NCBI GenBank assembly: GCA_963675915.1
Contig: OY780959.1
Span: 600,001-632,000, forward strand
Length of the DNA: 32,000 nt
Origin: Coprobacillaceae bacterium
Lineage (GTDB): Bacteria; Bacillota_I; Bacilli_A; Erysipelotrichales; Coprobacillaceae
Direction: 5' to 3'
Within the stretch, counting starts at the first letter, position 1, and each line of letters starts with the position of its first letter. This document shows positions 7,615 through 27,069 of this stretch, piece after piece. The notes below the pieces were generated by a model, which made no database searches, was not told where the DNA came from, and worked only from the letters and a program-made list of their open reading frames with translations. The position numbers and the translations under genes are program-made.

Positions 7615-8613
7615 ATGAGGAGTGATATAATGATAGCAGGATATGTTCGGGTCTCGACCCAAAGACAAGCAGATGAAGGCGTCAGTATAGAAATGCAAAA
7701 GAATTTAATTGCAAAGCACGCACACATGATTGAAATATTAGGAAAAAATGATGATATTGTATTTTACGTTGATGATGGATTTTCAGGATCATCGTTGCAA
7801 CGTCCCAAAATGGTGGAGTTAATTGATGACATGAAAAGCGGCAAAATCAGTGTTTTACTCGCATACGATCTATCTCGAATTAGCAGGGATCTTTTTGATA
7901 GTAATTCTTTTATGAGAATAGCTCGTAAATATGGAGTTGTAATTAAATGTATCTACGATGATATTGATATTGAAACAGCAGCTAATAGATTCAGTACAAA
8001 TATCAAAATACTAACAAATCAATACGAGCGGGAAAGGGTAATTGAGAGAACTAATGATTCATTAGTATCAATAGCTGATAGTGGTAGATATCCTGCAGGA
8101 GGTAAACCGCCTTTTGGATATTATCGCGGTCCTGACAAGATGGTTTGTATCGATGAGCACGATTCCAAAATAGTAATAAAAATATTTGAAATGATGAGAA
8201 AGGGCTATGACATAAAAGATGTTGTTAGCTATTTGGGATTTGAAACTGACAAGTTGAAAGCCAATAAAGATACGGTGTTGCGTCTCGTCCAAAATACCAA
8301 GTACATCGGTATATACAAGTTCAAAGGCAAAGAGTATGATGACTTGATTCCGCCGATAATTGATAAGAAAACTTTTGAGATCGTAAATCGGTCATTTAAA
8401 AAAATTGAAGTCAAAAAAGACGATAATTACCTCTTTGACGGAATGGTTTTCTGTGAAAAATGTGGGTGCTTGACCAAATGCTCACATTCGATCAATCATC
8501 AAGGTAAAAAATATTATTACTACGTTTGTTATAGTTGTAAAAAGTCGGTGAGTCAGAGCACCCTAGAGAAACATCTGTTCAGTGTTCATATTCATCATAA
8601 CCCCATGTGTTAG
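7615..8613 (+). pseudogene. Large serine recombinase, N-terminal 331 codons, truncated by the IS3 insertion
   Basis: GYVRVSTQRQ catalytic motif, YDLSRISRD, a recombinase domain (GRYPAGGKPPFGY) and a Zn ribbon (CEKCGC…YYYVCYSCKK). The terminal TGT TAG codons belong to the IS3 left end. Confidence 0.85.
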
Positions 8614-8676: not shown

Positions 8677-9153
8677 ATGACTAAAACATATACGACTGAA
8701 GAAAAAATAAAATTGATCAATCAAACATTGCCACCACTCAACAAAACTGTTGTTCAGATTGCTGCTGAAACTGGAATCAAAACTTCGACTCTTTATTCCT
8801 GGAAGCGTAGATACCTAAAATGTGCCGTTAATTCCAAAATCAAGGAACGTTACAGCAAGGCTGAAAGATTCCACTTTATCGTCGAATCCGCTTCGTTGAA
8901 CGAACACGAACTTGGAGAATATTGCCGGCAAAAAGGAATTTATCCTGATGAGCTGACAAAGTGGAAAAATGAATTTCTCAATGTTTCCAGTCAAGATGAT
9001 TCTGCGAAGGCCGAATTGCACAAGGAGCGAAGAAAACGTAAAGAGCTGGAAAAAGAACTCAAGCGCAAAGAAAAGGCTTTGGCTGAAGCTGCTGCGCTAC
9101 TGGTTCTTGAAAAAAAGCTCCAAGCAATTTGGGACGAAGAAGAGGAAGATTAA
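8677..9153 (+). CDS. IS3-family transposase OrfA (HTH + leucine-zipper-like, 158 aa)
   Basis: HTH (IAAETGIKTSTLYSWKRRY), then a charged coiled coil (KERRKRKELEKELKRKEKALAEAAALL) ending at the slippery site. Confidence 0.88.
   Translation: MTKTYTTEEKIKLINQTLPPLNKTVVQIAAETGIKTSTLYSWKRRYLKCAVNSKIKERYSKAERFHFIVESASLNEHELGEYCRQKGIYPDELTKWKNEFLNVSSQDDSAKAELHKERRKRKELEKELKRKEKALAEAAALLVLEKKLQAIWDEEEED
9111..9117 (+). promoter_or_regulatory. Programmed -1 ribosomal frameshift heptamer A AAA AAG
   Basis: A_AAA_AAG read in the orfA frame (gaa aaa aag). The orfB frame (-1) is open from 9111, immediately after a TGA at 9108-9110. This is the classical IS3/IS150/IS911 signal. Confidence 0.8.
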
Positions 9154-10232
9154 CCTCTCTCAAATTGCGTAAACTAATCGTTTCATTGATCAAAGACGCC
9201 AACGAAAATGGTGCTCGATTGATTCCGGCGTGTAAAGTGGTTGGAATATCCAAACGAACATATGAACGGTGGACCAATGAAACAGATGTGTTGGCTGACA
9301 AACGAACGACAGCTATTAGACCTGTGCCGGCCAATAAGCTAAGCGATGATGAGCGCCAAGTCGTAATTGACACTGTCAATTCTCCTAAATACAATTCTCT
9401 GCCTCCATCAACGATAGTGCCTAAGTTAGCTGACGAAGGTAAATATATTGGCTCAGAATCAACCATTTACCGCATTCTAAGGGAAAATAAACAATTGAAA
9501 CATCGTGGAAGAAGCAAGGAGCCTCAAAAGCAGGTCCCGACAACACATATTGCCAAAGCACCCAACGAGGTTTGGAGTTGGGATATTACTTGGTTGCACC
9601 GTAAGGATGTTAGGGGAGTTTATTACAAGTTATACATGATAATGGATATTTTCAGCCGGAAGATTGTCGGACATGAAGTGTGGGAAACGGAAAATGCCGA
9701 ATATTCCCAAACTCTTATAAAAAGGACACTGTTAAAAGAAAAGATAAGTGGCAGATCGCTTGTGCTGCATTCAGATAATGGTGGCCCAATGAAAGCATCA
9801 TCATTCCTGGGAACGCTTGAAAAATTAGGTGTGCAAAGCTCGTTTTCAAGGCCGAGAGTAAGTAATGACAATCCATATTCGGAAGCACTGTTCAAAACGC
9901 TAAAATACATTCCTAAGTATCCAACCAGCGGGTTTGAATCACTGGAACATGCCCGAGAATGGACTAGTGAATTCGTCCATTGGTACAATGAAGTCCATTA
10001 CCATAGCGGCATCAATTATGTAACCCCAGGAAGCAGACATCGTGGCGAAGATATCGAGATATTGAAGAATCGCAAAAGTGTTTACGCCCTTGCAAGAATG
10101 AAGCATCCTGAGAGATGGAGCGGTAATACTAAAACCTGGGAATATCAAACAACGGTTGCCCTGAATCCAACCGATGAAGAAAAAAACATGATCCAGAAAA
10201 AGAAATATCAAACAAACCAAATCTACGCATAA
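9129..10232 (+). CDS. IS3-family transposase OrfB (DDE integrase core), probably made as an OrfAB fusion
   Basis: rve-type core: WSWDITWL…, LHSDNGGPM, NDNPYSEALFKTLKY, WYNEVHYHSGINYVTP. It lies in the -1 frame relative to orfA. Confidence 0.88.
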   Translation: MGRRRGRLTSLKLRKLIVSLIKDANENGARLIPACKVVGISKRTYERWTNETDVLADKRTTAIRPVPANKLSDDERQVVIDTVNSPKYNSLPPSTIVPKLADEGKYIGSESTIYRILRENKQLKHRGRSKEPQKQVPTTHIAKAPNEVWSWDITWLHRKDVRGVYYKLYMIMDIFSRKIVGHEVWETENAEYSQTLIKRTLLKEKISGRSLVLHSDNGGPMKASSFLGTLEKLGVQSSFSRPRVSNDNPYSEALFKTLKYIPKYPTSGFESLEHAREWTSEFVHWYNEVHYHSGINYVTPGSRHRGEDIEILKNRKSVYALARMKHPERWSGNTKTWEYQTTVALNPTDEEKNMIQKKKYQTNQIYA

Positions 10233-10265
10233 TTAATTCAAAAAAATGCGTCAACTATATTGACA

Positions 10266-10395
10266 AACTCCGATAATGACAAACAAGAATATAAAGATTT
10301 ATTGATGAAAAGTGTCAAAAATGTAAAATCGAAAATGAAACGAGTCAAAGACAAATATTTGTCGGGTCAATTTAATGAGGCAAAGTATTTTAATG
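10266..10395 (+). pseudogene. Middle fragment of the large serine recombinase, between the IS3 and IS66 #2
   Basis: Reads NSDNDKQEYKDLLMKSVKNVKSKMKRVKDKYLSGQFNEAKYFN, which is like the C-terminal coiled-coil region of large serine recombinases. It continues in frame across the IS66 #2 TSD junction into 13160..13353. Confidence 0.65.
10388..10395. repeat. Target-site duplication TTTTAATG, left copy, IS66 #2
   Basis: Identical 8-mer at 13152..13159, abutting both IS ends. Confidence 0.9.
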
Positions 10396-10463
10396 GTATG
10401 CGTCAAATTGAGCGGTGGGAGAATATTCGAGGGTAAGTGAAAAGGAATCCGGGGGACAGTTTG

Positions 10464-12245
10464 TTACCGTCTTGGGATTCCTTTTTTGAGGCCCTTGATC
10501 TCCTTCGTGGTCAATTGACGCAGGTATGTTGGCAGTTCCTTATTGTAGGGTAGTAGTTTTCTAATTTCTTCTTCATCAGTAGGATCGATTCCCGGCAGCC
10601 TTTCCAGTACGTACTCCATGTACATGTACGGTGACAGCTTGTTTTCCTGGGCGCTTAACAGTATCGAATAGATTATCGCTGCGGCTTGCGCTCCTTTGGG
10701 GCTTGTATAGAATTTACATCGATTCCTTGATACGACAAACGGTCGTATAGCCCGTTCCGTGCTTGAATTGTCGAATGGAACTTTCGGGTTATTAAATACC
10801 TCGCTGAATTCCTTTTCGTGGTTCATCAGATATTTGATTGCCTTAAGCAAGGTTGGTTTCATATTAACTTCGGGCAACAGGATTATTTCTTTAAGGTACG
10901 CTAAAAACTTATCGTAGATTGGCTTTACGACATCATTTCGGCCCTTATGAATATATTGGAAATATTTATCCTGGTTCTTTGAGTATTTTCCCTTAGCAGC
11001 CTGTTCAATTTTGTTTTTTGCTTCGAATACTTTTTTGTAATAGCGATAGCAAGTGTATTCGTAACTTTGATTTTTATCGGTGCCTTTTGGCAGTACATCC
11101 AAGGCTTCCCGGAAATAGCGAAAGGCATGAACGTGGCAAAAACAGTTGGTGACATTATCAAGCGACTCGTAAGCACCATAGGCGTCTGTTACCAGATAGT
11201 GGGAGTAATCACCGATGAAGTCTTCAACAACCCGTTTTGAACGACTAGGATCATAACGGTACAAGATAATTGGTTCGTCATACTGATTGCTCCGTAGAAC
11301 CCAAAGATATGATTTGCTTTGCGCTGGTTTGCCGTCTTCCTTTAGAACCTGGGTGGTGGTTTCATCGCAGTGGATCACTTCCATGGACAACAAGTCTTTG
11401 TGCATGCACTCAAACAACAGGTTAAGATGAACCGATGCCTTGATCATCCAGTTGGCCATATTCTGTCTAGGGATGACGATGTCATTTTCAAGGAAACGTT
11501 TTTCCTGAGCAGCCAGTGGCAAACCCTTTAAATATTTCATGTCCATTATAGTTGCAATCAGTGATGGCGATGCAATGCTTCCCTTGATAACCGGTTGTCT
11601 TCCAGGAACTTTCTTGTACGATGATTTACCTTCCAAGTTGTGTTCCTGACAAGCAACACATTCGTATACCGGTGTACGGTAAATATTCAATTCAACTTTG
11701 GCGGGTGTATAGACAAGTTCTTTTCTTTCATCGTATTTTTTGATTGTCATAGTTGTACCACAAAGATCGCAAACGTCGAAACCATCAGGAGTTTCTTCTG
11801 TAATTATATTGGTTTTGAGATGGTCATAATTGATATGTTTTTCTTTGGGGATTCTAACTTTTCTTTTGTAACCTTTGATTTCCGTAGTTTCGAATTCTTC
11901 GGTTTCAGTAGCATTATCAAAATCAACACCGATTAGACTAAACAGATCAGGACCTTGGTTATATTCCTTAATATTGTTGCGTTGGGAGCTGTAGCGGGCG
12001 TTTTCCAATAATTTGATGTATTCGTTTTTCTGTTGTAGTTCAAGTTTGCGTTCTTTGATTTCAGCTGCCATTTTATCAATATCGGAAGTCAATTTCTTAT
12101 TATCGGCAGATAAATTCTTCTTTTCTTTAATAAGTTTTTCTTTTGAAATACGGTCGGATTCGATTTTGGCATAGAGTTCCTGTTCACGTTGTTTGAACGC
12201 TTCGATAAGTTCTTCTTTTGTCATATCTTCCATCAATTTGATCAC
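10464..12245 (-). CDS. tnpC: IS66-family transposase TnpC (593 aa)
   Basis: Coiled-coil N-terminus, Zn finger (CDLCGTTM…CVACQEH) and DDE core (HCDETTTQVL…, TDAYGAYE, CFCHVHAFRYF). Paralogous to the protein at 410..1981. Confidence 0.9.
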   Translation of the reverse strand: MIKLMEDMTKEELIEAFKQREQELYAKIESDRISKEKLIKEKKNLSADNKKLTSDIDKMAAEIKERKLELQQKNEYIKLLENARYSSQRNNIKEYNQGPDLFSLIGVDFDNATETEEFETTEIKGYKRKVRIPKEKHINYDHLKTNIITEETPDGFDVCDLCGTTMTIKKYDERKELVYTPAKVELNIYRTPVYECVACQEHNLEGKSSYKKVPGRQPVIKGSIASPSLIATIMDMKYLKGLPLAAQEKRFLENDIVIPRQNMANWMIKASVHLNLLFECMHKDLLSMEVIHCDETTTQVLKEDGKPAQSKSYLWVLRSNQYDEPIILYRYDPSRSKRVVEDFIGDYSHYLVTDAYGAYESLDNVTNCFCHVHAFRYFREALDVLPKGTDKNQSYEYTCYRYYKKVFEAKNKIEQAAKGKYSKNQDKYFQYIHKGRNDVVKPIYDKFLAYLKEIILLPEVNMKPTLLKAIKYLMNHEKEFSEVFNNPKVPFDNSSTERAIRPFVVSRNRCKFYTSPKGAQAAAIIYSILLSAQENKLSPYMYMEYVLERLPGIDPTDEEEIRKLLPYNKELPTYLRQLTTKEIKGLKKGIPRR

Positions 12246-12392
12246 TTGAATACACCTCTTTCCACTAGTGGCATTGTAGCATAAAAAGCCCTGAAAGTCT
12301 TGATTTCACGGCAATTTATAAAAGATGTGAATAACTTCAAAAGGCAAAAGATAAACCCACAAAAAAATGTGAATTAATCTTATGCGTAGGGG

Positions 12393-12752
12393 CTATATCA
12401 TTACTGAAATGTCCTTGAATGCCCTTTTCTGTTCAATTGCCAATCCATCAAGCAACCAACTCAACTGACGGATGTCAACAACCATTGAAGTGATATCTTC
12501 ATCACCCTTGGGCCAGAAGAACTTATCTTTATTAAGCAGCTTCTTGGAGTGGATGACAAATCCGTTCTTGTCGAACTCCAGCATCTTGATGCTTTTCTTG
12601 GATCTGTTGCAAAAGATGTACAGGTTATTGGCGGTGGGGTCAAGATACAGGCTGTGGGATACAATCGCGCTTAACCCGGCGTAGCTTTTCCTAAGATCAG
12701 TTGCCCCAGGAACCAAATAGATATTGTCGAAGTCTTCAAACCTAAGCTTCAT
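12393..12752 (-). CDS. tnpB: IS66 TnpB (119 aa)
   Basis: IYLVPGATDLRKSYAGLSAIV…YIFCNRSKKSIKMLEFDKNGFVIHSKKL matches the IS66 Orf2 pattern. Confidence 0.9.
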   Translation of the reverse strand: MKLRFEDFDNIYLVPGATDLRKSYAGLSAIVSHSLYLDPTANNLYIFCNRSKKSIKMLEFDKNGFVIHSKKLLNKDKFFWPKGDEDITSMVVDIRQLSWLLDGLAIEQKRAFKDISVMI

Positions 12753-13104
12753 TGATCATACCTATCAGTTTAGCCAGAGTTTCCAAGTCTGTCGAGTCGT
12801 CAACCGAAATAGTAGCCTTGCCAATATTGACATCGAACCCCTTGGAAACAACTTTACTGTTGCAATCAACAATATCCAGCCTGACAAGAGCTGTAGTAAA
12901 TCCAGAATCCTTAACTTCATCTCTTGAGCGATTCAAATATGGCTTAGAATACTTGTGGTAGCAAAAAGCATTGTACGAAACATCGTTAGCCAAACACCAT
13001 TTTTTAATGGTCAGATCACTATTGGCAGCCTCAGTAAATATCACCTGCCACTGATCATCAGAATAATTCAAATCATCACACCTCCAATTCGATGTGATAA
13101 TCAT
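12742..13104 (-). CDS. tnpA: IS66 TnpA (120 aa)
   Basis: First ORF inside the IS end; overlaps tnpB by 11 nt. Confidence 0.75.
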   Translation of the reverse strand: MIITSNWRCDDLNYSDDQWQVIFTEAANSDLTIKKWCLANDVSYNAFCYHKYSKPYLNRSRDEVKDSGFTTALVRLDIVDCNSKVVSKGFDVNIGKATISVDDSTDLETLAKLIGMINEA

Positions 13105-13151
13105 ACCATCAATGACCTCGACAACCTACCACCGCTCTATTTGACGCATAC

Positions 13152-13159
13152 TTTTAATG
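13152..13159. repeat. Target-site duplication TTTTAATG, right copy, IS66 #2
   Basis: Identical to 10388..10395. Confidence 0.9.
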
Positions 13160-13353
13160 TGATGACAATGCTTGAAGAGGAATTGTTTGAGATACAATAT
13201 AAATTGGTTGGCATTAATTTAAATATCAATAAGGACGAATACAAGAATTTGGTGTTAATGGCTGACAAAAAACAGTTTATCCAAATGCACATCAAATTAA
13301 TTATGATAAATCTAAACAACAAGAAAATATCGAAAATCGAATTTGTTGAATAG
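13160..13353 (+). pseudogene. C-terminal fragment of the large serine recombinase
   Basis: (V)MTMLEEELFEIQYKLVGINLN…KISKIEFVE*. It is in frame with 10266..10395 once IS66 #2 and one TSD copy are removed. The track ORF 12955..13353 is a chimera of IS antisense sequence plus this tail. Confidence 0.7.
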
Positions 13354-13387
13354 AGTATATTTTGTTATCTTTTGATGGCCGACTAAT

Positions 13388-13422
13388 GTAGCCAAGGGGG
13401 ATTCCCTTGGCTACATTTTTTT
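13388..13422 (+). terminator. Rho-independent terminator after the recombinase gene
   Basis: GTAGCCAAGGG-GGATT-CCCTTGGCTAC, an 11-bp GC-rich stem, followed by ATTTTTTT. Confidence 0.8.
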
Positions 13423-13434
13423 GTGCCGGGCATG

Positions 13435-13568
13435 GAATATAAATTGGTGGTGCAAGGCCACTAGTAATTATGGTTGACAAGAGACAGTTTATATTGACTC
13501 ATATTAAAATAATTTGTATAAATTTATATAATAAGAAGATTTCGAATATTGAATTGGTTGGGTTTTAA
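13435..13568 (+). pseudogene. Degenerate second copy of the recombinase 3' end
   Basis: AATATAAATTGGTGG…TTATGGTTGACAAGAGACAGTTTATATTGACTCATATTAAAATAATTTGTATAAATTTATATAATAAGAAGATTTCGAATATTGAATTGGTTGG aligns at roughly 70 percent by eye with 13195..13350. It contains several in-frame stops. Confidence 0.55.
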
Positions 13569-13799
13569 ACTTATTTAGATAATGAGTTATGGTTTTTATT
13601 ATCAACCGGAAAGATTTCCAGTTTATTTATGTAGGGAAATGTATTTTTCTGGAATGAGAGTATGAGCTCTACTCTGTGCCAAGTAGTATTTTCGAACATT
13701 AAAAGCAAATATTTTTGCTCATTAGCTATATAAAAACAGTTGTTTTATACGAAGTTAACATGTTTTATGTATAGTTATGAGAATATTGTTGCCCATGTG

Positions 13800-13828
13800 T
13801 TGAGATTCATGTGTAATTATGCCATAAT
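13800..13828 (+). promoter_or_regulatory. Candidate sigma-A promoter for the methyltransferase operon
   Basis: TTGAGA, a 17-nt spacer, then CATAAT, about 70 nt upstream of the ATG at 13897. Confidence 0.35.
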
Positions 13829-13896
13829 AATTTAGAATATGGTTATAACTAAGGGGATGAATTGATTGAAATTAAGTAAGAGAGGGGCTAGAACCA

Positions 13897-15024
13897 ATGG
13901 CAAATGAGAGATTATCAAATGCTAAAAACGCAAAAAAAGACGAATTTTATACACAATATGAAGACATTCAACGAGAGGTTAATGCATATTTGGAATATGA
14001 CCAAGAAGTATTCAAAGGGAAAACAGTGCTTTTACCTTGTGATGATCCCGAGTGGAGTGAATTTACAAGATTTTTTGCTCAAAATTTTGAAAGATTTGGG
14101 TTAAAAAAACTAATAAGTACAAGCTATGCAACAGAAAGTAAAAAGCTGAGAAATTATCAGCTGTCTTTATTTGAAGAACAGTCGCCTCAGTATGATAGTT
14201 CAAAAACAAAGACTAATGGAAAGATTTTTACTCTTACTCGCGATATAAACGAATCTGGAAATGTTGATATCGATGATTTGGAGTGGAATTATTTGGAGGG
14301 GGATGGTGACTTCAGAAGCAAGGAAGTAATTGAACTCAGAAATGAAGCTGACATAATTGTCACAAATCCTCCATTTTCACTTTTTAGGGAATTTATTGAG
14401 TGGATTTTTGAAGAAGACAAGAAATTTTTAGTTATCGGAAATCAAAATGCAATCACGTACAAAGATATTTTTTCTTTAATAAAAGACAATAAGTTATGGC
14501 TAGGTAATGGATTTAAAGGAAACATTGGTTATTTCAAATCTGTATATGAGGATATTGCAGTTGCATCTCAACATAAAGAAGGGTTTATTCGTATTTCAGG
14601 CGTAATGTGGTTTACAAATATCGAACACGGTAGAAGACATAGGCCCTTACAGCTTATGTCAATGAATGATAATTTAAAATATAGTAGACACAAACAAATT
14701 AAGGATAGTGGCTATATGAAATATGAGAATTATGATGCTATAGAGGTACCGTTTACGGATTCGATTCCATATGATTATTTAGGGATAATGGGAGTTCCAA
14801 TCACATTTATGAGTAAATATTGCCCGGAACAATTTGAAATATTAGGTATGTGTGAAAACCTTGATCTATACGGGTTAAAGACTCGAATATACAGTTCGCA
14901 GGAGTGTAGGCAAAGATATTTTGAGATTTTCGGAAGAAAAGGTACTTATGATTTGAATGCATCTGGAGTTATTAATGGAAAAAAGGTGTATCAGCGAATT
15001 TTAATTAGACGCAAGGAGATTTAG
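13897..15024 (+). CDS. N6-adenine DNA methyltransferase (EcoRI-methylase-like family, 375 aa)
   Basis: [10 protein letters not shown]…[10 protein letters not shown]…, then catalytic [14 protein letters not shown] (NPPF at 14365..14376). RBS AGAGGGG upstream. Confidence 0.85.
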
Positions 15025-15026
15025 TA

Positions 15027-16190
15027 ATGAAAACAGTGTTAAGAACAGATATTTCAATTGAAGATATCTGTAAGGGTTTTGTTTATAATGAGTATGAAGG
15101 AAAAGGTCTTTTTGGGCTATCAGGAAAACTAACTATTCAACCAGAATACCAACGCAATTATATTTACGCAGATGGAAAAAAGGATGTTGCTGTCATTGAG
15201 TCAATACTCAAGGGATATCCTTTGGGCCTGATATACTTCACAAAAGTTGGTGAGGAAAAATATGAAGTACTTGATGGTCAGCAAAGGATCACTAGTTTTG
15301 GGAGATTTGTATCTGGTAAATTTGCAATAAAAAATGAAAACGGAATACCACAATATTTTAGTGGTTTAGCTGGGGACATGCGAGATCTAATAATGAAAAC
15401 CAAACTTACAATTTATGAATGTGAGGGTTCAGAAAGCGAAATTAAAGAATGGTTTAAGACAATCAATATTGTAGGAATACCTCTAAACGAACAGGAGCTG
15501 TCAAATGCTATTCATTCTGGACCTTTTGTGACACTGGCAAAAGAAGAATTTAGTAATAGCCAGAATGCAAATATTCAAAAATGGGGTTCTTATATTTCTG
15601 GTAATGTAATTAGGCAAGATTACTTGCGCACAGCAATTAAATGGGTTAGTAAAGATAACATTGATGCCTATATGAGCAAACATCGACATGACAATAATAT
15701 TGACGAATTAAGAGTATATTTCACTAGTGTTATCGATTGGATATCTAGTGTTTTTGTAGATGTTGAAGATACGATGAAAGGTTTAGAGTGGGGAAAATTA
15801 TATGAGGAGTATCATGGCAATTCTTATAATCAACAGACGGTCTCAAAAATGGTAAAAACATATTTGAAAGATTATTATGTCATTGATAAAAAAGGCATCT
15901 ATGAATTTATTCTTGGCGGTTGCAAAGATTCAAAACTTTTAAACATAAGAGTTTTTAATGAAGTGACGAAGAAAAATGCATATGAAACTCAGACAGAACA
16001 GGCTAAATTAAAAGGCGAATCAAATTGTCCTCTATGCGCCTTGGGAAAAAATAATAACAGTAAACGAATTTGGAAAATTAAAGAGATGGACGCTGATCAC
16101 GTAACTGCTTGGAGCAGAGGAGGTATAACAGACATTACAAATTGTGAGATGTTATGTAAAACACACAATCGTGCAAAGGGAAACAGATGA
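15027..16190 (+). CDS. DUF262 (GmrSD N-terminal / ParB-like) domain protein with a C-terminal HNH nuclease (387 aa)
   Basis: IQPEYQRNY…[10 protein letters not shown] (DGQQR at 15273..15287). C-terminal CPLC…[33 protein letters not shown] is an HNH motif. The start is 2 nt after the MTase stop, and its RBS AAGGAG lies inside the MTase 3' end. Confidence 0.85.
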
Positions 16191-16213
16191 TTTTAGAGGA
16201 TTGTATAGCTCTT

Positions 16214-16243
16214 TTGAATACTTACATTATTTCGGGATAATAT
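16214..16243 (+). promoter_or_regulatory. Possible internal promoter ahead of the helicase gene
   Basis: TTGAAT, an 18-nt spacer, then TAATAT, within the 112-nt gap. Confidence 0.3.
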
Positions 16244-16302
16244 CACTACATTAATTTGATTATACCGAATATTTTAATAAAGATTTTGTCAGGGGGTAAG
16301 AA

Positions 16303-19026
16303 ATGCCAAGTGAAACACAACTAAAAATTGATGGACAAATACGCAATATTGATAAAGTTATATGCCGCAACATTGATGGTATAGGAAATAGTACAAGAGG
16401 GGCGGTATCTCAAGATATTTTGGCACAATTAAGGAACTTCGTTGAACACATAATGCTTAAATTTTATGCTGACGGTCAAGATATAGAAGACAGTTATGAT
16501 AATATTTGTAGTGCAATTAATTTCGTGAAAATTAAAGGAGAATTAAAGGTGTTGTGGAGGTTTCATGATTATCTTCAAATTGTTGCATCTCATTTCACTC
16601 TTGATGAGGAAAATTCGGAACGATTAATGCTAAAATATTACGAGTACCTTTTAAGAATTAAAGGTTTGCTTAAGGAAAAATATGATATTGATGTCTTAGG
16701 TAATATTGAGAAATTTCCTGTAAAAAAAGATCCTAACTTGCAAGAATATTATAATAAGATAGCTAAAAAAATTCAATCTTATCAACTACAAAATGTAGAA
16801 TTGCCAAACAAATATTATATACAAAAAATCAAACCTTTTTTTGTAGGGCAAAATATATTTTATGAGGTCACATTTGCTCCGGCAAATGACTGCGCGAGTA
16901 AATTTAACCGGGCTATAGCTTTTACAAGTATAGATATATTAAAAAATTATTCAGTAAGGTTGAATATAGTAGAGGATAGTATTAAAATTTTTGGAAAAAG
17001 TATGCCAATTTTAGTTATTGTAGGATGGGAGGTTGCAATTAGAAATTGCGAGTATAAAAATTTTACAAGTTTAATCAGAGGTTACCCTGCTAGAACTAGA
17101 TATTCAGAACAAAAGGGAGTTTCAATGTTTTTGTCTCATACGGGGTTAACTTTGCTTGAGGTAGTTGATTTTCCGTGTGAAAATTTTCAAAGAGTCAGAA
17201 ATTGGGCAACACAACATACAAAAGATGTTGTGTTCTTTGATGATTTAGAAGTGTGTCGCCAAATATTGCAAAAAAATAGTCCAGGAAGTAACGTGATAAG
17301 ATATTTACTTTATTGTATGAATAATAAAGTGATAAAAAATCAATATCATCCCAGTGAAAACCATCTATTATCTGGACTTCATCTGAAAAATGGGTGTATA
17401 CCGTTTGATAAAATTCCTTTTAACGCTTCTCTCTTAGGACATAATCCTAAACTTATGGATTTATTTGGGTGTATTGAGACTCAAAATAGACAACATGAAT
17501 TACTGGCGAGATTGGTGAGAAACAATACAGAAATGGAAGGGATTTTATTTACACCTATCAAAGATATTAAGGGATTTGCTGATGTTTCGCATCTAGCGAT
17601 GTTATATAATTCTAAGCTGTGGTCCGGTCATGTTGAAAATAGCAAATTAGTTATAGAGAATGGTCATATTTTTATAAATGGTTATAAGAATGACACGAGT
17701 GTTATTATCGGCAAACTAAAAAAAATGGCTAAGAATGGTGTTCAAAATTATTCTAATTCAGTTTTAGAGTGGTTAAATACTCCAAATAATGGGGTTGATT
17801 GTGATGAGAAGAGAGAGGCTTTAGTTCATATGTTTGATAAATCCAGTGTCGCACTTGTATATGGTGCTGCCGGTACTGGAAAATCGACTTTTATTAATCA
17901 TGTAGCTCATTTTTTTTCAAATAAAAGAAAACTTTTTTTAGCTCAGACTCACCCGGCTGTCGATAATTTGAAACGTCGAGTTAATGCATCCAACTGTGAG
18001 TTTATGACGATTGCAAAATTCTTAAATAAACAAATACCTGTGACTAAATTTGATTTGATAGTGATAGATGAATGCAGTACTGTAAACAATAAGGATATGA
18101 AAAATGTCTTGGAAAAGGGCAAATGCCAACTTTTGGTTCTAGTTGGAGATTCGTATCAAATATCGTCAATACGTTTTGGCAATTGGTTCAGCATAGCGCC
18201 ATATTTTATCTCTAAAAATTCAGTTTTGAATTTGACTATGCCCTATAGAAGTAATAGTGAGAAATTACTTGTTTTGTGGAATAGAGTGCGTAAAATGGAT
18301 GATAGAATTTTAGAGATAATTACTCGCCAAGGATATTCATCAACGTTAGACGATTCTATTTTTGTTGCAAATGAGATAGACGAAATAATACTTTGTCTTA
18401 ATTATGATGGATTATATGGAATTAATAACATCAATCTTTTTTTGCAAGAAAACAATCCTAACACAGCTGTACATTGGGGAATACAGCAGTACAAGATGGG
18501 CGATCCAATTTTATTTAATGACGTTGAACGTTTTTCTCCAATAATTTATAACAATATGAAAGGTCGTATTAAAGACGTTAAGATAATCAAGAGTGAAAAC
18601 AATGCTGAACGTATACAATTTGATATTGAGTTAGATAAGGCAATAAATGGGATGGATGCATTTGGCCAGGATTTTGAGTTATTGGAAAGCGCAAGTAATG
18701 GTAATTCAATTATTAGATTTTATGTAAATAAAGACAAGAGTGTTGACGATGATGATTCTGGGTCCTCAATGTCTATAGTGCCTTTTCAAGTCGCTTATGC
18801 TGTATCTATTCATAAGGCCCAGGGGCTTGAATATAACTCTGTAAAAATAGTCATAACTAACGAAGTAGATGAATTAATTACTCACAATATATTTTATACG
18901 GCTATTACGCGTGCAAGAAATCACTTAAAGATTTACTGGACACCGGAAATTGAAAAGAGAATTTTAGGTAATATTGAACCTAAAAAAAATAATAAAGATG
19001 CTCATCTTTTGAGAAGATACTTATAG
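16303..19026 (+). CDS. 907-aa protein: unknown ~500-aa N-terminal region + RecD/Dda-like SF1 helicase
   Basis: Helicase motifs in order: GAAGTGKST (17863..), AQTHPAVDNL, LIVIDECS, LVLVGDSYQISSI, MPYRS, VSIHKAQGLEYNSV, FYTAITRARNHLKIY. RBS AGGGGG upstream. Confidence 0.85.
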   Translation: MPSETQLKIDGQIRNIDKVICRNIDGIGNSTRGAVSQDILAQLRNFVEHIMLKFYADGQDIEDSYDNICSAINFVKIKGELKVLWRFHDYLQIVASHFTLDEENSERLMLKYYEYLLRIKGLLKEKYDIDVLGNIEKFPVKKDPNLQEYYNKIAKKIQSYQLQNVELPNKYYIQKIKPFFVGQNIFYEVTFAPANDCASKFNRAIAFTSIDILKNYSVRLNIVEDSIKIFGKSMPILVIVGWEVAIRNCEYKNFTSLIRGYPARTRYSEQKGVSMFLSHTGLTLLEVVDFPCENFQRVRNWATQHTKDVVFFDDLEVCRQILQKNSPGSNVIRYLLYCMNNKVIKNQYHPSENHLLSGLHLKNGCIPFDKIPFNASLLGHNPKLMDLFGCIETQNRQHELLARLVRNNTEMEGILFTPIKDIKGFADVSHLAMLYNSKLWSGHVENSKLVIENGHIFINGYKNDTSVIIGKLKKMAKNGVQNYSNSVLEWLNTPNNGVDCDEKREALVHMFDKSSVALVYGAAGTGKSTFINHVAHFFSNKRKLFLAQTHPAVDNLKRRVNASNCEFMTIAKFLNKQIPVTKFDLIVIDECSTVNNKDMKNVLEKGKCQLLVLVGDSYQISSIRFGNWFSIAPYFISKNSVLNLTMPYRSNSEKLLVLWNRVRKMDDRILEIITRQGYSSTLDDSIFVANEIDEIILCLNYDGLYGINNINLFLQENNPNTAVHWGIQQYKMGDPILFNDVERFSPIIYNNMKGRIKDVKIIKSENNAERIQFDIELDKAINGMDAFGQDFELLESASNGNSIIRFYVNKDKSVDDDDSGSSMSIVPFQVAYAVSIHKAQGLEYNSVKIVITNEVDELITHNIFYTAITRARNHLKIYWTPEIEKRILGNIEPKKNNKDAHLLRRYL

Positions 19027-19187
19027 AAATATTAACATTTCTTCAATAATATTTGGTTTACCTTCTGAATTTTAATAAGTATATTGATTTGATAGACGAA
19101 AGTATCTTTGTAACTTATTACAGAGTAAAAAAATAAAATAAGTATACTATGTAGATCAGTTTAATATTTCCAAAAATACTTTAAAGG

Positions 19188-19195
19188 TGTATAAT
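19188..19195 (+). promoter_or_regulatory. Extended -10 element TGTATAAT ahead of the OLD-family gene
   Basis: TGnTATAAT match about 50 nt upstream of the ATG at 19247. The -35 is weak (TTTCCA at 17-nt spacing). Confidence 0.35.
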
Positions 19196-19246
19196 GTCAA
19201 CATAGAGTGTTGTAAAATGCTTATATTTAATATGAGGGGTAATAAA

Positions 19247-21175
19247 ATGATCAAGTTGCTAAATGTCAAAGTAAAAAAGTATAAATGCATTGAAACTGAA
19301 CAAAATTTTAAGGTAGAGGATGATGTGACGGTTCTAGTTGGGATGAACGAATCAGGAAAAACAAGTGTTCTAGAAGCGATAGCTAAAGCAAATTATTTTG
19401 AAGATGACGATATTTTTAAATATAATAAAACTCATGATTATCCACGGAAACAAGTAAAATCAATTAAGAAAAATACAGATGCACCTGTGGCTGTACTCTT
19501 GTCTTATGAATTATCAGATGATTTAGTTGCGCAAATAAGCGATGATCTTGGATTGAAGATTGATTGTAAATATATTGAATATATTGCGAAATACGATAAT
19601 ACGTTCACTGTACTTGGGATAAAGCCGTTATTTTCGGTTAGAGAGTTTTTGGAATTGAAATTAGGTGGTATTAATCTCGAAAATGGTGAATTGGAAAAAA
19701 TCTATAAAGAATTTGAAGTAGTAAAAGATAAAAAAAGTTTTGGCACTACTATCAATTCTTTCAAGAGTTTTTTGCATGAAAATGGGATAACGATGCTGAC
19801 ATCACTAGAAAAATATTTTTCTAATGAAGGTAAATGGGAAAATCCTATAATTTACTATATTTGGAATTCTCATATAAAGCCAAGGATACCCAAATTCATG
19901 TATTATGATGACTACTATTCTTTGCCTTCTAGAATACCACTTGAAGATATTCAAAGGAATAATGCTTTAGAACCATCTAATAAAACGGCAAAAGCGCTAT
20001 TAGAACTTGCCGATATAGACTTAGATAATCTTCTAAAATCGGACGATTTTGAAGATTTTAAGGCTGAACTAGAAGCTACACAAGAAAATATAACCTCAGA
20101 GCTTTTTAAGTACTGGAATACTAATTCAAATCTAAGTATTAGGTTTGATGTAGACACAAAAGAAGTCACAAAGCCAAATAATCAAAAAGTAACCAAACAT
20201 ATACTTGATATAAGGGTTTGGAATGATAGAAATAGGGTATCTTTACCATTGAAGAATAGAAGTAAGGGATTTAATTGGTTTTTCTCATTTTTAGTTTGGT
20301 TTAAAAAAATCCAAGAGGATGATTCAGGTTCATTTATTTTACTATTGGATGAACCGGGCTTAAACTTGCATGCCATGGCTCAGAATGATTTATTAAGGTT
20401 TATTTACGATCTTACTTCTGAATATCAAATCATTTATACAACACATTCACCTTTTATGATTGATTCTGAAAAATTAGATAAAGTTAGGACTGTAGTTGAA
20501 AAGTCTGATGGAACTCATATTTCTGATAGCCTGCAAGAAAAAGATCCGAGCACGCTGTTTCCACTTCAAGCCGCATTAGGATACACTTTAGCGCAAAATT
20601 TATTCGTTTCACCTAATAATCTTATTGTTGAAGGGATTGCTGATTTGACATTTATAAATATTATATCTGGAGTTTTGGAGGCTAAGGGCAGGTCTGGATT
20701 AGATGGTAAAATTACTGTTGTTCCAGTAGGTGGAGCTGATAAAGTTGCAACTTTTGTTTCTTTAATGAGGGGCAATGAATTGAATGTTGTCTGCTTATTA
20801 GATACGTTTAGTGATAAATCTGCTGAAGCGCGTTTACAACATTTGGTTAAAGGAAAAATCATATCAGATAAGAAAATTATGTTTTATGATGAATTCATAG
20901 ATAGTGATTTTGCTGATGTTGAGGACTTATTTACTAAGGATGATTACTTGCATCTATATAACAATAATTTCGGTGAAAGCATATCAATCTCCGATTTGGA
21001 ACCAGATGAACCCATCCTAGATCAGATCAAAAAAATTAGAGGAGGGAAAAATTTTAATCACTATGGTCCGGCTAATTATTTAGCTAAACATATTCAGGAT
21101 GTAAATTTATCTTCTGGAACGTTGGATAGATTTGAAAAATTATTAGAAAAGGTCAATAATAAGTTTGTAAAGTAG
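19247..21175 (+). CDS. OLD-family nuclease-like protein: ABC-type ATPase + C-terminal TOPRIM (642 aa)
   Basis: The start is moved to the ATG at 19247, with RBS GAGGGG 8 nt upstream. Walker A GMNESGKTS, signature-like SKGFNWFFSF, Walker B ILLLDEPG and H-loop YTTHSP. TOPRIM-like LIVEGIADL…VVPVGGADK…CLLDTFSD (about 20609..20836). Confidence 0.8.
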   Translation: MIKLLNVKVKKYKCIETEQNFKVEDDVTVLVGMNESGKTSVLEAIAKANYFEDDDIFKYNKTHDYPRKQVKSIKKNTDAPVAVLLSYELSDDLVAQISDDLGLKIDCKYIEYIAKYDNTFTVLGIKPLFSVREFLELKLGGINLENGELEKIYKEFEVVKDKKSFGTTINSFKSFLHENGITMLTSLEKYFSNEGKWENPIIYYIWNSHIKPRIPKFMYYDDYYSLPSRIPLEDIQRNNALEPSNKTAKALLELADIDLDNLLKSDDFEDFKAELEATQENITSELFKYWNTNSNLSIRFDVDTKEVTKPNNQKVTKHILDIRVWNDRNRVSLPLKNRSKGFNWFFSFLVWFKKIQEDDSGSFILLLDEPGLNLHAMAQNDLLRFIYDLTSEYQIIYTTHSPFMIDSEKLDKVRTVVEKSDGTHISDSLQEKDPSTLFPLQAALGYTLAQNLFVSPNNLIVEGIADLTFINIISGVLEAKGRSGLDGKITVVPVGGADKVATFVSLMRGNELNVVCLLDTFSDKSAEARLQHLVKGKIISDKKIMFYDEFIDSDFADVEDLFTKDDYLHLYNNNFGESISISDLEPDEPILDQIKKIRGGKNFNHYGPANYLAKHIQDVNLSSGTLDRFEKLLEKVNNKFVK

Positions 21176-21399
21176 GATGCAGATTTGATAAAACATTGAT
21201 AATTTTGCAGCTATTTTTGCTATTCGTGTTACGTATCGTAGTTATCACGATTAAAAAGACGATAATTGCATTGCAATTGTAATATAAAAGTAGAAAAACT
21301 ACTAAGAAAATAATTGTCTTAACAGGCTTTCTACTTTTATCATGCTTAAATTTGCATGGAAGCAAATTGATGATTATATCTTGCTTGCAGTGATTGAAA

Positions 21400-21520
21400 G
21401 TAAGCGTCAAATAGATACACGGTTTAAAATTGAGTGCCTCGAGTTAGAATATCATTTTAATTTATAACAGTAGGTACTTTTTATGAATTCTCAAGAGCGT
21501 TATGATTATTAGAATGGTCT
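21400..21520 (+). mobile_element. Solo end / remnant of an IS66 #1-like element
   Basis: GTAAGCGTCAAATAGA IR plus ~105 nt matching the tnpA-proximal end of IS66 #1 (reverse complement of 2630..2747) with scattered mismatches. The tnpA start reads MNSQERYDY* (TGG changed to TAG). Similarity is lost after 21520. Confidence 0.75.
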
Positions 21521-21575: not shown

Positions 21576-21583
21576 GATTAACA
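21576..21583. repeat. Target-site duplication GATTAACA, left copy, IS66 #3
   Basis: Identical 8-mer at 24339..24346. Confidence 0.9.
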
Positions 21584-21630
21584 GTATGCGTCAAATAGAG
21601 CGGTGGTAGGTTGTCGAGTTCATTGATGGT

Positions 21631-21993
21631 ATGATTATCACATCGAATTGGAGGTGTGATGATTTGAATTATTCTGATGATCAGTGGCAGGTGATATTTA
21701 CTGAGGCTGCCAATAGTGATCTGACCATTAAAAATTGGTGTTTGGCTAACGATGTTTCGTACAATGCTTTTTGCTACCACAAGTATTCTAAGCCATATTT
21801 GAATCGCTCAAGAGATGAAGTTAAGGATTCTGGATTTACTACAGCTCTTGTCAGGCTGGATATTGTTGATTGCAACAGTAAGGTTGTTTCCAAGGGGTTC
21901 GATGTCAATATTGGCAAGGCTACTATTTCGGTTGACGACTCGACAGACTTGGAAACTCTGGCTAAACTGATAGGTATGATCAATGAAGCTTAG
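21631..21993 (+). CDS. tnpA: IS66 TnpA (120 aa)
   Basis: One aa difference from 12742..13104 (K versus N). Confidence 0.75.
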   Translation: MIITSNWRCDDLNYSDDQWQVIFTEAANSDLTIKNWCLANDVSYNAFCYHKYSKPYLNRSRDEVKDSGFTTALVRLDIVDCNSKVVSKGFDVNIGKATISVDDSTDLETLAKLIGMINEA

Positions 21994-22342
21994 GTTTGAA
22001 GACTTCGACAATATCTATTTGGTTCCTGGGGCAACTGATCTTAGGAAAAGCTACGCCGGGTTAAGCGCGATTGTATCCCACAGCCTGTATCTTGACCCCA
22101 CCGCCAATAACCTGTACATCTTTTGCAACAGATCCAAGAAAAGCATCAAGATGCTGGAGTTCGACAAGAACGGATTTGTCATCCACTCCAAGAAGCTGCT
22201 TAATAAAGATAAGTTCTTCTGGCCCAAGGGTGATGAAGATATCACTTCAATGGTTGTTGACATCCGTCAGTTGAGTTGGTTGCTTGATGGATTGGCAATT
22301 GAACAGAAAAGGGCATTCAAGGACATTTCAGTAATGATATAG
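21983..22342 (+). CDS. tnpB: IS66 TnpB (119 aa)
   Basis: Protein identical to 12393..12752. Confidence 0.9.
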   Translation: MKLRFEDFDNIYLVPGATDLRKSYAGLSAIVSHSLYLDPTANNLYIFCNRSKKSIKMLEFDKNGFVIHSKKLLNKDKFFWPKGDEDITSMVVDIRQLSWLLDGLAIEQKRAFKDISVMI

Positions 22343-22489
22343 CCCCTACGCATAAGATTAATTCACATTTATTTGTGGGTTTATCTTATGCCTTTTGAAG
22401 TTATTCACATCTTTTATAAATTGCCGTGAAATCAAGACTTTCAGGGCTTTTTATGCTACAATGCCACTAGTGGAAAGAGGTGGATTCAA

Positions 22490-24274
22490 GTGATCAAATT
22501 GATGGAAGATATGACAAAAGAAGAACTTATCGAAGCGTTCAAACAACGTGAACAGGAACTCTATGCCAAAATCGAATCCGACCGTATTTCAAAAGAAAAA
22601 CTTATTAAAGAAAAGAAGAATTTATCTGCCGATAATAAGAAATTGACTTCCGATATTGATAAAATGGCAGCTGAAATCAAAGAACGCAAACTTGAACTAC
22701 AACAGAAAAACGAATACATCAAATTATTGGAAAACGCCCGCTACAGCTCCCAACGCAACAATATTAAGGAATATAACCAAGGTCCTGATCTGTTTAGTCT
22801 AATCGGTGTTGATTTTGATAATGCTACTGAAACCGAAGAATTCGAAACTACGGAAATCAAAGGTTACAAAAGAAAAGTTAGAATACCTAAAGAAAAACAC
22901 ATCAATTATGACCATCTCAAAACCAATATAATTATAGAAGAAACTCCTGATGGTTTCGATATTTGTGATCTTTGTGGCACAACCATGAAAATAAAGAAGT
23001 ACGATGAAAGAAAGGAACTTGTCTATACTCCTGCCAAAGTTGAATTGAATATTTACCGTACACCGGTATACGAATGTGTTGCTTGTCAGGAACACAACTT
23101 GGAAGGTAAATCATCTTACAAGAAAGTTCCTGGAAGACAACCGGTTATCAAAGGAAGCATTGCATCGCCATCACTGATTGCAACTATAATGGACATGAAA
23201 TATTTAAAGGGTTTGCCACTGGCTGCTCAGGAAAAACGTTTCCTTGAAAATGACATCGTCATCCCTAGACAGAATATGGCCAACTGGATGATCAAGGCAT
23301 CGGTTCATCTTAACCTGTTGTTTGAGTGCATGCACAAAGACTTGTTGTCCATGGAAGTGATCCACTGCGATGAAACCACCACCCAGGTTCTAAAGGAAGA
23401 CGGCAAACCAGCGCAAAGCAAATCATATCTTTGGGTTCTACGGAGCAATCAGTATGACGAACCAATTATCTTGTACCGTTATGATCCTAGTCGTTCAAAA
23501 CGGGTTGTTGAAGACTTCATCGGTGATTACTCCCACTATCTGGTAACAGATGCCTATGGTGCTTACGAGTCGCTTGATAATGTCACCAACTGTTTTTGCC
23601 ACGTTCATGCCTTTCGCTATTTCCGGGAAGCCTTGGATGTACTGCCAAAAGGCACCGATAAAAATCAAAGTTACGAATACACTTGCTATCGCTATTACAA
23701 AAAAGTATTCGAAGCAAAAAACAAAATTGAACAGGCTGCTAAGGGAAAATACTCAAAGAACCAGGATAAATATTTCCAATATATTCATAAGGGCCGAAAT
23801 GATGTCGTAAAGCCAATCTACGATAAGTTTTTAGCGTACCTTAAAGAAATAATCCTGTTGCCCGAAGTTAATATGAAACCAACCTTGCTTAAGGCAATCA
23901 AATATCTGATGAACCACGAAAAGGAATTCGGCGAGGTATTTAATAACCCGAAAGTTCCATTCGACAATTCAAGCACGGAACGGGCTATACGACCGTTTGT
24001 CGTATCAAGGAATCGATGTAAATTCTATACAAGCCCCAAAGGAGCGCAAGCCGCAGCGATAATCTATTCGATACTGTTAAGCGCCCAGGAAAACAAGCTG
24101 TCACCGTACATGTACATGGAGTACGTACTGGAAAGGCTGCCGGGAATAGATTCTAGTGATGAAGATGAAATCAGGAAACTACTACCATACAATAAAGAAC
24201 TGCCAAGATATCTGCGTCAATTGACAGCGAAGGAAATCAAAGAACTAAAAAAAGGAATCCCAAGACGGAAATAA
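22490..24274 (+). CDS. tnpC: IS66-family transposase TnpC (594 aa)
   Basis: Near-identical to 10464..12245. GTG start with RBS AGAGGTGG upstream. Confidence 0.9.
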   Translation: MIKLMEDMTKEELIEAFKQREQELYAKIESDRISKEKLIKEKKNLSADNKKLTSDIDKMAAEIKERKLELQQKNEYIKLLENARYSSQRNNIKEYNQGPDLFSLIGVDFDNATETEEFETTEIKGYKRKVRIPKEKHINYDHLKTNIIIEETPDGFDICDLCGTTMKIKKYDERKELVYTPAKVELNIYRTPVYECVACQEHNLEGKSSYKKVPGRQPVIKGSIASPSLIATIMDMKYLKGLPLAAQEKRFLENDIVIPRQNMANWMIKASVHLNLLFECMHKDLLSMEVIHCDETTTQVLKEDGKPAQSKSYLWVLRSNQYDEPIILYRYDPSRSKRVVEDFIGDYSHYLVTDAYGAYESLDNVTNCFCHVHAFRYFREALDVLPKGTDKNQSYEYTCYRYYKKVFEAKNKIEQAAKGKYSKNQDKYFQYIHKGRNDVVKPIYDKFLAYLKEIILLPEVNMKPTLLKAIKYLMNHEKEFGEVFNNPKVPFDNSSTERAIRPFVVSRNRCKFYTSPKGAQAAAIIYSILLSAQENKLSPYMYMEYVLERLPGIDSSDEDEIRKLLPYNKELPRYLRQLTAKEIKELKKGIPRRK

Positions 24275-24338
24275 ACTGTCCCTGGATTCCTTTTCACTTA
24301 CCCTCGAATATTCTCCCACCGCTCTATTTGACGCATAC

Positions 24339-24346
24339 GATTAACA
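24339..24346. repeat. Target-site duplication GATTAACA, right copy, IS66 #3
   Basis: Identical to 21576..21583. Confidence 0.9.
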
Positions 24347-26963: not shown

Positions 26964-26966
26964 CTC

Positions 26967-26992: not shown

Positions 26993-27002
26993 ATTTGGTA
27001 TG

Positions 27003-27053: not shown

Positions 27054-27069
27054 AAGGCGAGGTGAAAAT

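Follow-up and report, generated by a model that had tools for sequence, protein, structure and literature searches.

Four adjacent defence-type genes in a Coprobacillaceae bacterium: a probable stack of three independent modules

Introduction

Does a run of four co-oriented genes, each with a domain familiar from phage defence, constitute a single immune system, or are these genes neighbours that came to lie together by separate routes? The question is raised by a segment of contig OY780959.1 (assembly GCA_963675915.1) of a Coprobacillaceae bacterium, which was analysed within a window of 32,000 nt (positions 600,001 to 632,000 of the forward strand; the coordinates given below are those of the window). 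Between positions 13897 and 21175 the segment contains genes for an EcoRI-family N6-methyladenine (m6A) methyltransferase (MTase), a DUF262-HNH nuclease, a helicase-type protein of the family catalogued by PADLOC as PDC-S53, and an OLD nuclease. An earlier note on this DNA had proposed that the four genes could be either a single new system of four components or a stack of two to three small ones.

The comparisons presented here indicate that the segment is very probably a stretch of defence island in which three evolutionarily independent modules are placed head to tail, namely a restriction-modification (R-M) pair, PDC-S53 and OLD. The modules would have been gathered by accretion and not inherited as a unit: the helicase and OLD families appear often to be appended 3' of unrelated R-M operons, and here both would have been added to one R-M pair. 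Two copies of one IS66 element would then have inserted later, and independently, on either side.

Organization of the locus

All four genes lie on the + strand. Gene 1 (13897-15024) specifies the 375-aa MTase and gene 2 (15027-16190), which begins 2 nt past the MTase stop codon, the 387-aa DUF262-HNH nuclease; they are followed by gene 3 (16303-19026), encoding the 907-aa PDC-S53-type helicase, and by gene 4 (19247-21175, counted from an ATG start), encoding the 642-aa OLD nuclease. The gaps between the genes are 2, 112 and 220 nt, the last value holding only with the OLD start at ATG 19247, since the mechanically called open reading frame (ORF) of this gene begins at GTG 19187. The ATG is most likely the true start, because a GAGGGG ribosome-binding site is present there and an identical protein in the database (P0121) has a length of 642 aa. 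Signature or catalytic motifs are intact in all four genes, each of which has its own ribosome-binding site, and to judge from their sequences all four look functional. The earlier note had described four intact, co-oriented genes with these gaps and had assigned domains to each of them; the ORFs were found as described, and the domain calls are borne out by Pfam and PADLOC matches together with the motifs listed below, the Toprim match of OLD being a weak one.

The G+C content of the four genes is 0.31-0.34, as against 0.40 for the flanking IS66 copies and 0.43 for the stretch at 25365-31741, which agrees with the remark in the note that the segment is richer in A+T than the genes to its right. 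The four proteins are singletons at 90% identity, and a megablast search against plasmids returned no match for the cassette (13300-21500) or for the IS66 copy.

With respect to transcription, a consensus scan for terminator-like hairpins found none in either the 112-nt or the 220-nt gap, as had been supposed from the sequence at the outset. A strong terminator-like hairpin (13385-13417, + strand), comprising a 15-bp stem with 7 G-C pairs followed by a run of T residues, is situated in the 737-nt non-coding stretch that separates the left IS66 copy from the MTase gene, and would insulate the cassette from transcription arriving from the left. A promoter scan revealed sigma-70-like sites in both gaps (16214-16241 and 19167-19195); promoter-like hexamers across the scanned region, on the other hand, are not in excess over shuffled sequence (53 found, 47.6 expected). 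As the count is no higher than in shuffled sequence, separate transcription of the genes is not shown by these sites, and since no terminator intervenes, co-transcription of the genes from a promoter near 13800-13830 is possible.

Co-occurrence of the four genes

Genomic neighbourhoods were assembled for three of the four proteins. The helicase set consists of 80 genomic loci with homologues of 49-70% identity and up to 10 kb of sequence on each side, ranging from Bacillota to Bacteroidota, Proteobacteria and Candidate Phyla Radiation (CPR) bacteria; the OLD set contains 95 loci with an OLD homologue; and the nuclease set covers four independent contexts. The neighbour counts given in this and the following sections are approximate, genes having been called with a crude longest-ORF procedure.

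A relative of the OLD gene of the window adjoined the helicase in none of the 80 helicase loci, the nearest approach being a weak 68-aa ATPase match upstream of the helicase in a single locus (L068). The reciprocal result was obtained with the 95 OLD loci: the helicase was found in none of them, and no helicase of the UvrD/GajB type recurs downstream of OLD. The R-M pair stood beside the helicase in one helicase locus of the 80 (L079), where it is directly upstream, while another (L048) carries a 40%-identical nuclease at a distance of 5 kb. The nearest neighbours are heterogeneous in the helicase loci, and also in the OLD loci (at least 63), where OLD, in keeping with the single-gene character of class 1 OLD proteins, has no conserved partner gene. 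The closest relative of the helicase (70% identity) follows a Type I R-M system and YgjP. Taken by gene, the nearest relatives of the nuclease (78%), the helicase (70%) and the OLD protein (62%) are found in three unrelated settings on different contigs.

That the four genes together make up a single new system in which every component is obligate is suggested by their common orientation, the short gaps and the fact that no terminator was detected between them; in the one locus with the R-M pair beside the helicase, moreover, three of the four recur in unchanged order. The full set, however, recurs in none of the 80 helicase loci, the 95 OLD loci or the four nuclease contexts; each part is found alone in many lineages; and the identity to the nearest relative differs from gene to gene, with the relatives residing on different contigs. 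A four-component system is, in our estimation, extremely improbable.

As little credence can be given to the idea that genes 3 and 4 are a Gabija-like helicase and OLD pair in reversed order. An SF1 helicase does adjoin an OLD ATPase-Toprim protein here, and PADLOC returns a weak GajB match to gene 3 (1.6e-06) and a partial GajA match to gene 4 (1.2e-20). Against this, the two families never co-occur (0/80 and 0/95), 220 nt separates the genes, and the helicase, with its matches to RecD2, RecD and Pif1, is a RecD/Pif1-like enzyme of the SF1B branch and not UvrD/PcrA/Rep-like; in the fold search with the OLD protein, moreover, the class 1 enzyme TsOLD ranks first and GajA 28th. Both the four-gene system and the helicase-OLD pair are rejected because the genes concerned do not co-occur across the locus sets.

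Of the two outcomes that the earlier note had allowed for, it is consequently the stack of small systems that stands and the four-component system that falls. Homologues of the 907-aa protein, which the note had singled out as the ones whose neighbours should be inspected, essentially never have the other three genes beside them, in the 80 helicase loci or, seen from the other end, in the 95 OLD loci. The note was right to set canonical Gabija aside, the helicase being RecD-like SF1B, upstream of OLD and never linked to it. Its suggestion of a novel system has fared less well, as PADLOC puts genes 1 and 2 in Type II R-M, gene 3 in PDC-S53 and gene 4 in the OLD family, so that the bulk of the locus is accounted for by categories already described. 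BREX, DISARM and Type I R-M had also been excluded in the note; the PADLOC scan of the four proteins gave no match to any of these among the matches listed, no dedicated test of the exclusions having been made.

The restriction-modification pair

The product of gene 1 matches the Pfam family EcoRI_methylase (E = 7.7e-124) over residues 6-373, with the motif IV sequence NPPF at residue 157, and the PADLOC profile MTase_II (2e-88) over nearly the full protein. That of gene 2 contains the Pfam domains GmrSD_N/DUF262 (4.9e-20) and HNH (PF01844; 7.9e-07), with a DGQQR motif at residue 83 and the HNH motif at 358-386, and fits the PADLOC profile REase_II (PDLC03418; 1.8e-83) over residues 19-386 of 387. 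It has more than 8000 homologues, most of them likewise 387 aa long. The Pfam search did not match GmrSD_C/DUF1524 in this protein, a sequence search against the PDB was without a match, and nothing was found for gene 1 or gene 2 in NCBIfam.

An EcoRI-family MTase is located directly beside the nuclease homologue in all contexts examined, these being four unrelated ones and the loci L079 and L175. In the four unrelated contexts (L177-L187, L182, L192) the MTase gene is upstream and overlaps the nuclease gene by 4 nt, and neither a helicase nor an OLD gene is adjacent. The pair resides in chromosomal or mobile-element surroundings, among housekeeping or integrative-element genes, for example in the interval between ftsZ and a sigma factor gene, or after lysS in Clostridium botulinum; the closest relative of the nuclease (78% identity) is part of an integrative element. 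On these comparisons genes 1 and 2 are predicted to be an autonomous Type II R-M module that moves as a two-gene unit. The MTase would mark host DNA as m6A and so protect it, and the DUF262-HNH enzyme, translationally coupled to it, would cleave unmethylated incoming DNA, probably in a manner dependent on nucleoside triphosphate (NTP) through the ParB/Srx-type domain that carries DGQQR.

Among characterised enzymes a DUF262 domain with DGQQR is typical of GmrSD, BrxU and SspE, and gene 2 might on that account be a Type IV, modification-dependent nuclease of the GmrSD/BrxU kind, with an MTase that is not cognate. We consider this very unlikely. The C-terminal domain is a PF01844 HNH and not DUF1524/GmrSD_C, the protein fits the Type II REase profile of PADLOC end to end, and in every context an EcoRI-family MTase is adjacent or overlaps by 4 nt, whereas a modification-dependent nuclease would not be expected to be welded to an MTase. 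Since it is always paired in this way, the gene 2 enzyme probably avoids modified DNA rather than targeting it.

The PDC-S53 helicase-type protein

The 907-aa product of gene 3 aligns with the PADLOC profile PDC-S53 (PDLC05035) at 1270.4 bits, residues 8-906 being matched to profile positions 3-893 of 900. It also contains the Pfam domains AAA_30, Viral_helicase1 and UvrD_C_2, and a Walker A motif, GAAGTGKS, at residue 521. The match to the RecD2 model TIGR01448 (105 bits) is far under the cut-off of 500, all matches of genes 3 and 4 in NCBIfam are below threshold, and the PDB matches to RecD and Pif1 cover the C-terminal part of the protein only. The polypeptide is divided into an N-terminal domain (residues 1-495), made up of a helical bundle, a beta barrel resembling the oligonucleotide/oligosaccharide-binding (OB) fold and a helical region, and an SF1B RecD/Pif1-like helicase core (residues ~500-890).

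An AlphaFold2 model of residues 1-500 has a predicted local distance difference test score (pLDDT) of 84, and a search with it gave no PDB fold match at E < 0.01, with weak OB-fold resemblances only. An exhaustive search showed that the N-terminal domain occurs almost exclusively at the start of proteins of ~900 aa; the architecture is therefore a fixed one. Within this domain the motif HxTLDEENSERLMLKYY (residues 97-113; 16591-16641 of the window) is almost invariant across phyla; it falls in a loop modelled with low confidence (pLDDT < 50 for residues 98-104), and could be a catalytic or an interaction site of the domain.

PDC-S53 is an unvalidated single-gene defence candidate catalogued by PADLOC. 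Its action would combine an SF1B motor, presumably moving 5'-3', with the family-specific 495-aa N-terminal domain, which most likely would recognise an intermediate of phage replication or recombination.

The family is also encountered on mobile elements. The helicase is cargo on a 10.6-kb mobilizable Lactiplantibacillus plasmid, where it lies beside the rep gene, and is present in two phage records, annotated as RecD- or Dda-like; the copy in phage phi1605 adjoins a Type IIS R-M system. These occurrences, together with the failure to find a defence role for PDC-S53 in the literature searched, would suit a helicase without immune function that serves mobile elements in their replication or maintenance and has entered the island by chance. 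Such a role is unlikely. The helicase is enriched beside R-M genes, with Type I components at most four genes upstream in 16 of the 80 loci and downstream in 7; its spread is patchy and crosses phyla at 50-70% identity; PADLOC lists the family as a defence candidate; and in phi1605 the gene stands beside the R-M system, outside the replication module.

The OLD nuclease

In the product of gene 4, Pfam detects AAA_15 (3.3e-22) and AAA_21, with a Walker A motif, GMNESGKT, at residue 32, while OLD-like_TOPRIM scores 21.0 bits, which is under its cut-off of 23.2. The PADLOC matches are to Old (2e-25; the model covers 374-540), AriA and GajA and are all partial, that to AriA comprising the ATPase part only. 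A PDB sequence search identified 6p74, the class 1 OLD protein of Thermus scotoductus, which is at the same time the top fold match (E = 1.6e-13) of an AlphaFold2 model of the protein (pLDDT 81.5). Six acidic residues (E462, D466, D519, D557, E559 and D560) are invariant in 45 OLD homologues, as would fit a metal site. Sequence and model alike point to a fused ABC-type ATPase and C-terminal Toprim protein, that is, a predicted stand-alone OLD of the class 1 type. By analogy with P2 Old and the Thermus enzyme, its predicted activity is to nick DNA or convert it to a linear form, with degradation in the 5'-3' direction. PARIS was considered as a relative and discarded, its ATPase and Toprim (DUF4435) parts being separate proteins (AriA/AriB), in contrast with the single 642-aa fusion of gene 4.

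The closest relative of the OLD gene (62% identity) comes after a Viral_Rep rolling-circle replication gene (L188-L191), which suggests that it is carried on an integrated element of the filamentous-phage-like or rolling-circle kind. The small element in these loci also carries a Zot-like gene. In a further pair of loci (L093 and L094; 2938-6929 in L093) OLD is downstream of a CBASS-like pair, a SMODS nucleotidyltransferase with SLATT, and a Type I hsdR.

Association with restriction-modification operons

R-M genes are directly upstream of OLD in about one fifth of the loci of this clade, often overlapping the OLD gene. Class 1 OLD genes have been described as standing alone, away from other defence genes (PMC10568477), a description from which the present clade departs, and in the original OLD classification 107 of 837 OLD genes were in species-specific operons (PMC6755086). 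The genes tightly coupled to OLD on its upstream side (gap of at most 45 nt, or overlap) belong to unrelated Type I, II and III R-M systems, and include XamI, PstI-like and Eco47II Type II enzymes with their MTases, Dam-type and C5 MTases, Type III Mod-Res and Type I HsdM-HsdS. The order in one locus (L148, 1827-9413) is hsdM-hsdS-OLD-hsdR. The anticodon nuclease gene prrC of the prr locus occupies the same place, between hsdS and hsdR.

Several observations weigh against a mere stacking of independent modules, and are collected here. When MTases were counted by motif ([DNS]PP[YFW], or PCQ with ENV), genes with such motifs were found at most three genes from OLD in 14 of 63 loci on the upstream side and in 4 of 60 on the downstream side; the corresponding numbers for the helicase are 14/73 and 5/70. 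The upstream excess has a pooled Fisher p of 0.0013 for the OLD and helicase loci, and the MTases peak at position -2, as is expected for the order M-R-X, against a background of 2/424 at six or more genes away. This enrichment of both tail genes downstream of R-M could reflect functional coupling rather than simple stacking. Two loci repeat parts of the arrangement in the window: L079 (1883-6996) has the MTase, a DUF262-HNH nuclease 66% identical to ours and the helicase in the same order, and L175 (2187-6939) has a more distant OLD relative (36% identity) followed by the same R-M family, that is, in the opposite order. With no terminator between the four genes of the segment, their co-transcription, and hence their functional cooperation, is possible as far as the sequence goes. 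Lastly, our literature search returned no paper that mentions PDC-S53.

The explanation to be set beside accretion is that the modules are evolutionarily separable and yet functionally coupled, OLD, and perhaps PDC-S53, being second-line or guard effectors of the R-M system that precedes them. They would fire when an anti-restriction protein of a phage blocks restriction, in a manner similar to PrrC, or would process the DNA ends made by restriction. The bias of MTases to the upstream side, the unrelated nature of the R-M systems to which OLD is tightly joined, and the position of OLD inside the hsd operon of L148 all argue in this direction. So does established phage biology: Old of phage P2 is lethal to recBC cells, and Ocr, an anti-restriction protein, is what sets off the OLD-related PARIS system. 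On the other side, the association is confined to about a fifth of the loci, R-M genes being absent from the vicinity of most members of both families; the gene that precedes the closest OLD homologue is a rolling-circle Rep gene; and a place in an R-M operon could merely supply a constitutive promoter or joint mobility. On balance we regard coupling as doubtful, and continue to favour accretion of independent modules.

Stated in its most general form, the coupling hypothesis would make the ~640-aa fused OLD clade and, separately, PDC-S53 dedicated "R-M riders", occupying the tail or the interior of Type I, II and III R-M operons and serving as a second line coupled to restriction. Their cue might be an anti-restriction protein or a failure of restriction, as with PrrC, or their task might be to destroy what restriction produces. 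The window may then be a case of an R-M pair having collected both riders, and the rare recurrences in L079 and L175 fit with an attachment of such genes to R-M operons. We put this forward tentatively, as a suggestion that is probably not correct. R-M operons are known to carry extra co-expressed defence genes, for example PrrC, AbiL, AbiU1 and AbiR (Makarova 2013, PMC3632139), which lends the hypothesis some plausibility; because such extra genes are already published, the pattern would be an extension of known ideas and would introduce no new principle.

Flanking IS66 copies and mobile surroundings

The left flank of the segment is an IS66-family element (10396-13151, - strand; Pfam DDE_Tnp_IS66 and TnpB_IS66). 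It contains a 120-aa ORF, presumed to be tnpA, without a Pfam match (12742-13104), a tnpB-like gene (12393-12752; TnpB_IS66) and the DDE transposase gene (10464-12245; DDE_Tnp_IS66). Its terminal inverted repeats, read from the sequence, begin GTATGCGTCAAAT, and it is bordered by an 8-bp direct repeat, TTTTAATG, at 10388-10395 and 13152-13159, which represents the target-site duplication. The right flank is a second, complete copy of the same element (21584-24338, + strand), 98% identical and in inverted orientation, with a target-site duplication of its own, the 8-bp GATTAACA at 21576-21583 and 24339-24346.

The earlier note had recorded the IS66 end at 13151 and a solo IS66 repeat at 21400. 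Both are present, to which the complete copy directly after the latter has to be added. The solo end (21400-21520, + strand; inverted repeat GTAAGCGTCAAATAGAT...) is of a different IS66 type from the flanking copies, with 89.6% identity to the end of another IS66 element at 410-2729, and was truncated by the insertion of the right copy, which follows it directly. As each IS66 copy possesses its own 8-bp duplication, two independent insertions must have taken place, and the segment was therefore not brought in as a composite transposon. A composite transposon had been entertained in view of the paired copies; the outer flanks differ, and the duplications TTTTAATG and GATTAACA are separate. The description of an IS66-bracketed cassette, if taken to mean a mobile unit, has accordingly to be abandoned.

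Removal of the left IS66 copy together with one copy of its duplication (10233-10395 joined to 13160-13896) leaves a 118-aa open frame across the junction, and from the sequence this element may have interrupted an older gene.

Mobile elements form a patchwork over the whole left 24 kb of the window, where mobile and conflict genes abound. Directly after the IS66 element at 410-2729 is a gene for a YobI-like P-loop NTPase (2757-5792, + strand; 1011 aa; Pfam YobI-ATPase, 7.5e-71; GC 0.28), which is probably a further conflict or defence gene of the same island. It is followed on the + strand by a pair of genes for serine recombinases/resolvases (6963-7532; 7615-8613) and by an IS3-like transposase encoded in two ORFs (8677-10232). 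To the right of the second IS66 copy, the + strand of the stretch at 25365-31741 encodes an ABC-F ATPase, a MarR regulator and two ABC-2-type membrane proteins of ~700 aa, one of which has a weak LXG-domain match mid-protein.

Significance and comparison with known systems

The locus is, on our interpretation, an ordinary defence island and adds no new kind of immune system. Its practical value is that it offers intact and compact examples of three modules, a DUF262-HNH Type II R-M system, PDC-S53 and a stand-alone OLD, and that in the first of these a nuclease architecture otherwise known from Type IV enzymes is found in a Type II setting. The survey further suggests that isolation is not a feature of every "class 1" OLD gene, one clade being frequently operonic with unrelated R-M systems. 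Should OLD and R-M prove to be linked in function, the PrrC/PARIS concept of effectors standing behind restriction would be broadened, and class 1 OLD proteins would gain a candidate trigger that can be tested.

Each module may be set against its nearest known counterparts. Genes 1 and 2 resemble Type II R-M systems with an EcoRI-family (PF13651), gamma-class m6A MTase in the full-length MTase match, the NPPF motif and the tight downstream nuclease; they differ from EcoRI in that the nuclease is composed of DUF262 (ParB/Srx NTPase-like) and HNH domains and is not of the PD-(D/E)XK type. The nuclease shares with the Type IV enzymes GmrSD, BrxU and SspE an N-terminal DUF262 with DGQQR and a C-terminal His-Me finger nuclease, but has the PF01844 HNH in place of DUF1524, is only half as large and has an MTase partner in every context.

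At the sequence level gene 3 does not differ from the PDC-S53 family of PADLOC, having the same fixed architecture of ~907 aa and the same single-gene status. A comparison can be made with Nhi (nuclease-helicase immunity; Staphylococcus SERP2475), which defends alone, each consisting of a single chain in which an effector or sensor domain at the N terminus precedes a helicase at the C terminus. Nhi, however, is a protein of ~72 kDa with an N-terminal PD-(D/E)XK nuclease, whereas gene 3 has a different, unrecognised 495-aa N-terminal domain; no nuclease motif and no match to an Nhi profile were detected in gene 3, and the likeness is one of architecture only.

Gabija (GajA/GajB, with a class 2 OLD) is similar in that an OLD-family nuclease is near an SF1 helicase; here the helicase comes from the wrong branch of the superfamily and stands before OLD instead of after it, at a distance of 220 nt, and the families are never found together elsewhere. 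Gene 4 agrees with class 1 OLD (P2 Old, Thermus scotoductus OLD [6P74] and E. coli YbjD) in its predicted fused ABC ATPase-Toprim structure and in having no obligate partner gene, and differs in being longer than TsOLD and in belonging to a clade that is often operonic with R-M, which class 1 OLD genes as described are not. Finally, the OLD loci of this clade recall PrrC (Type Ic prr locus), AbiL, AbiU1 and AbiR, in which an NTPase-nuclease gene is carried within an R-M operon or at its end; PrrC, though, joins an ABC-NTPase to a HEPN anticodon nuclease, while the nuclease of OLD is predicted to be a Toprim DNase.

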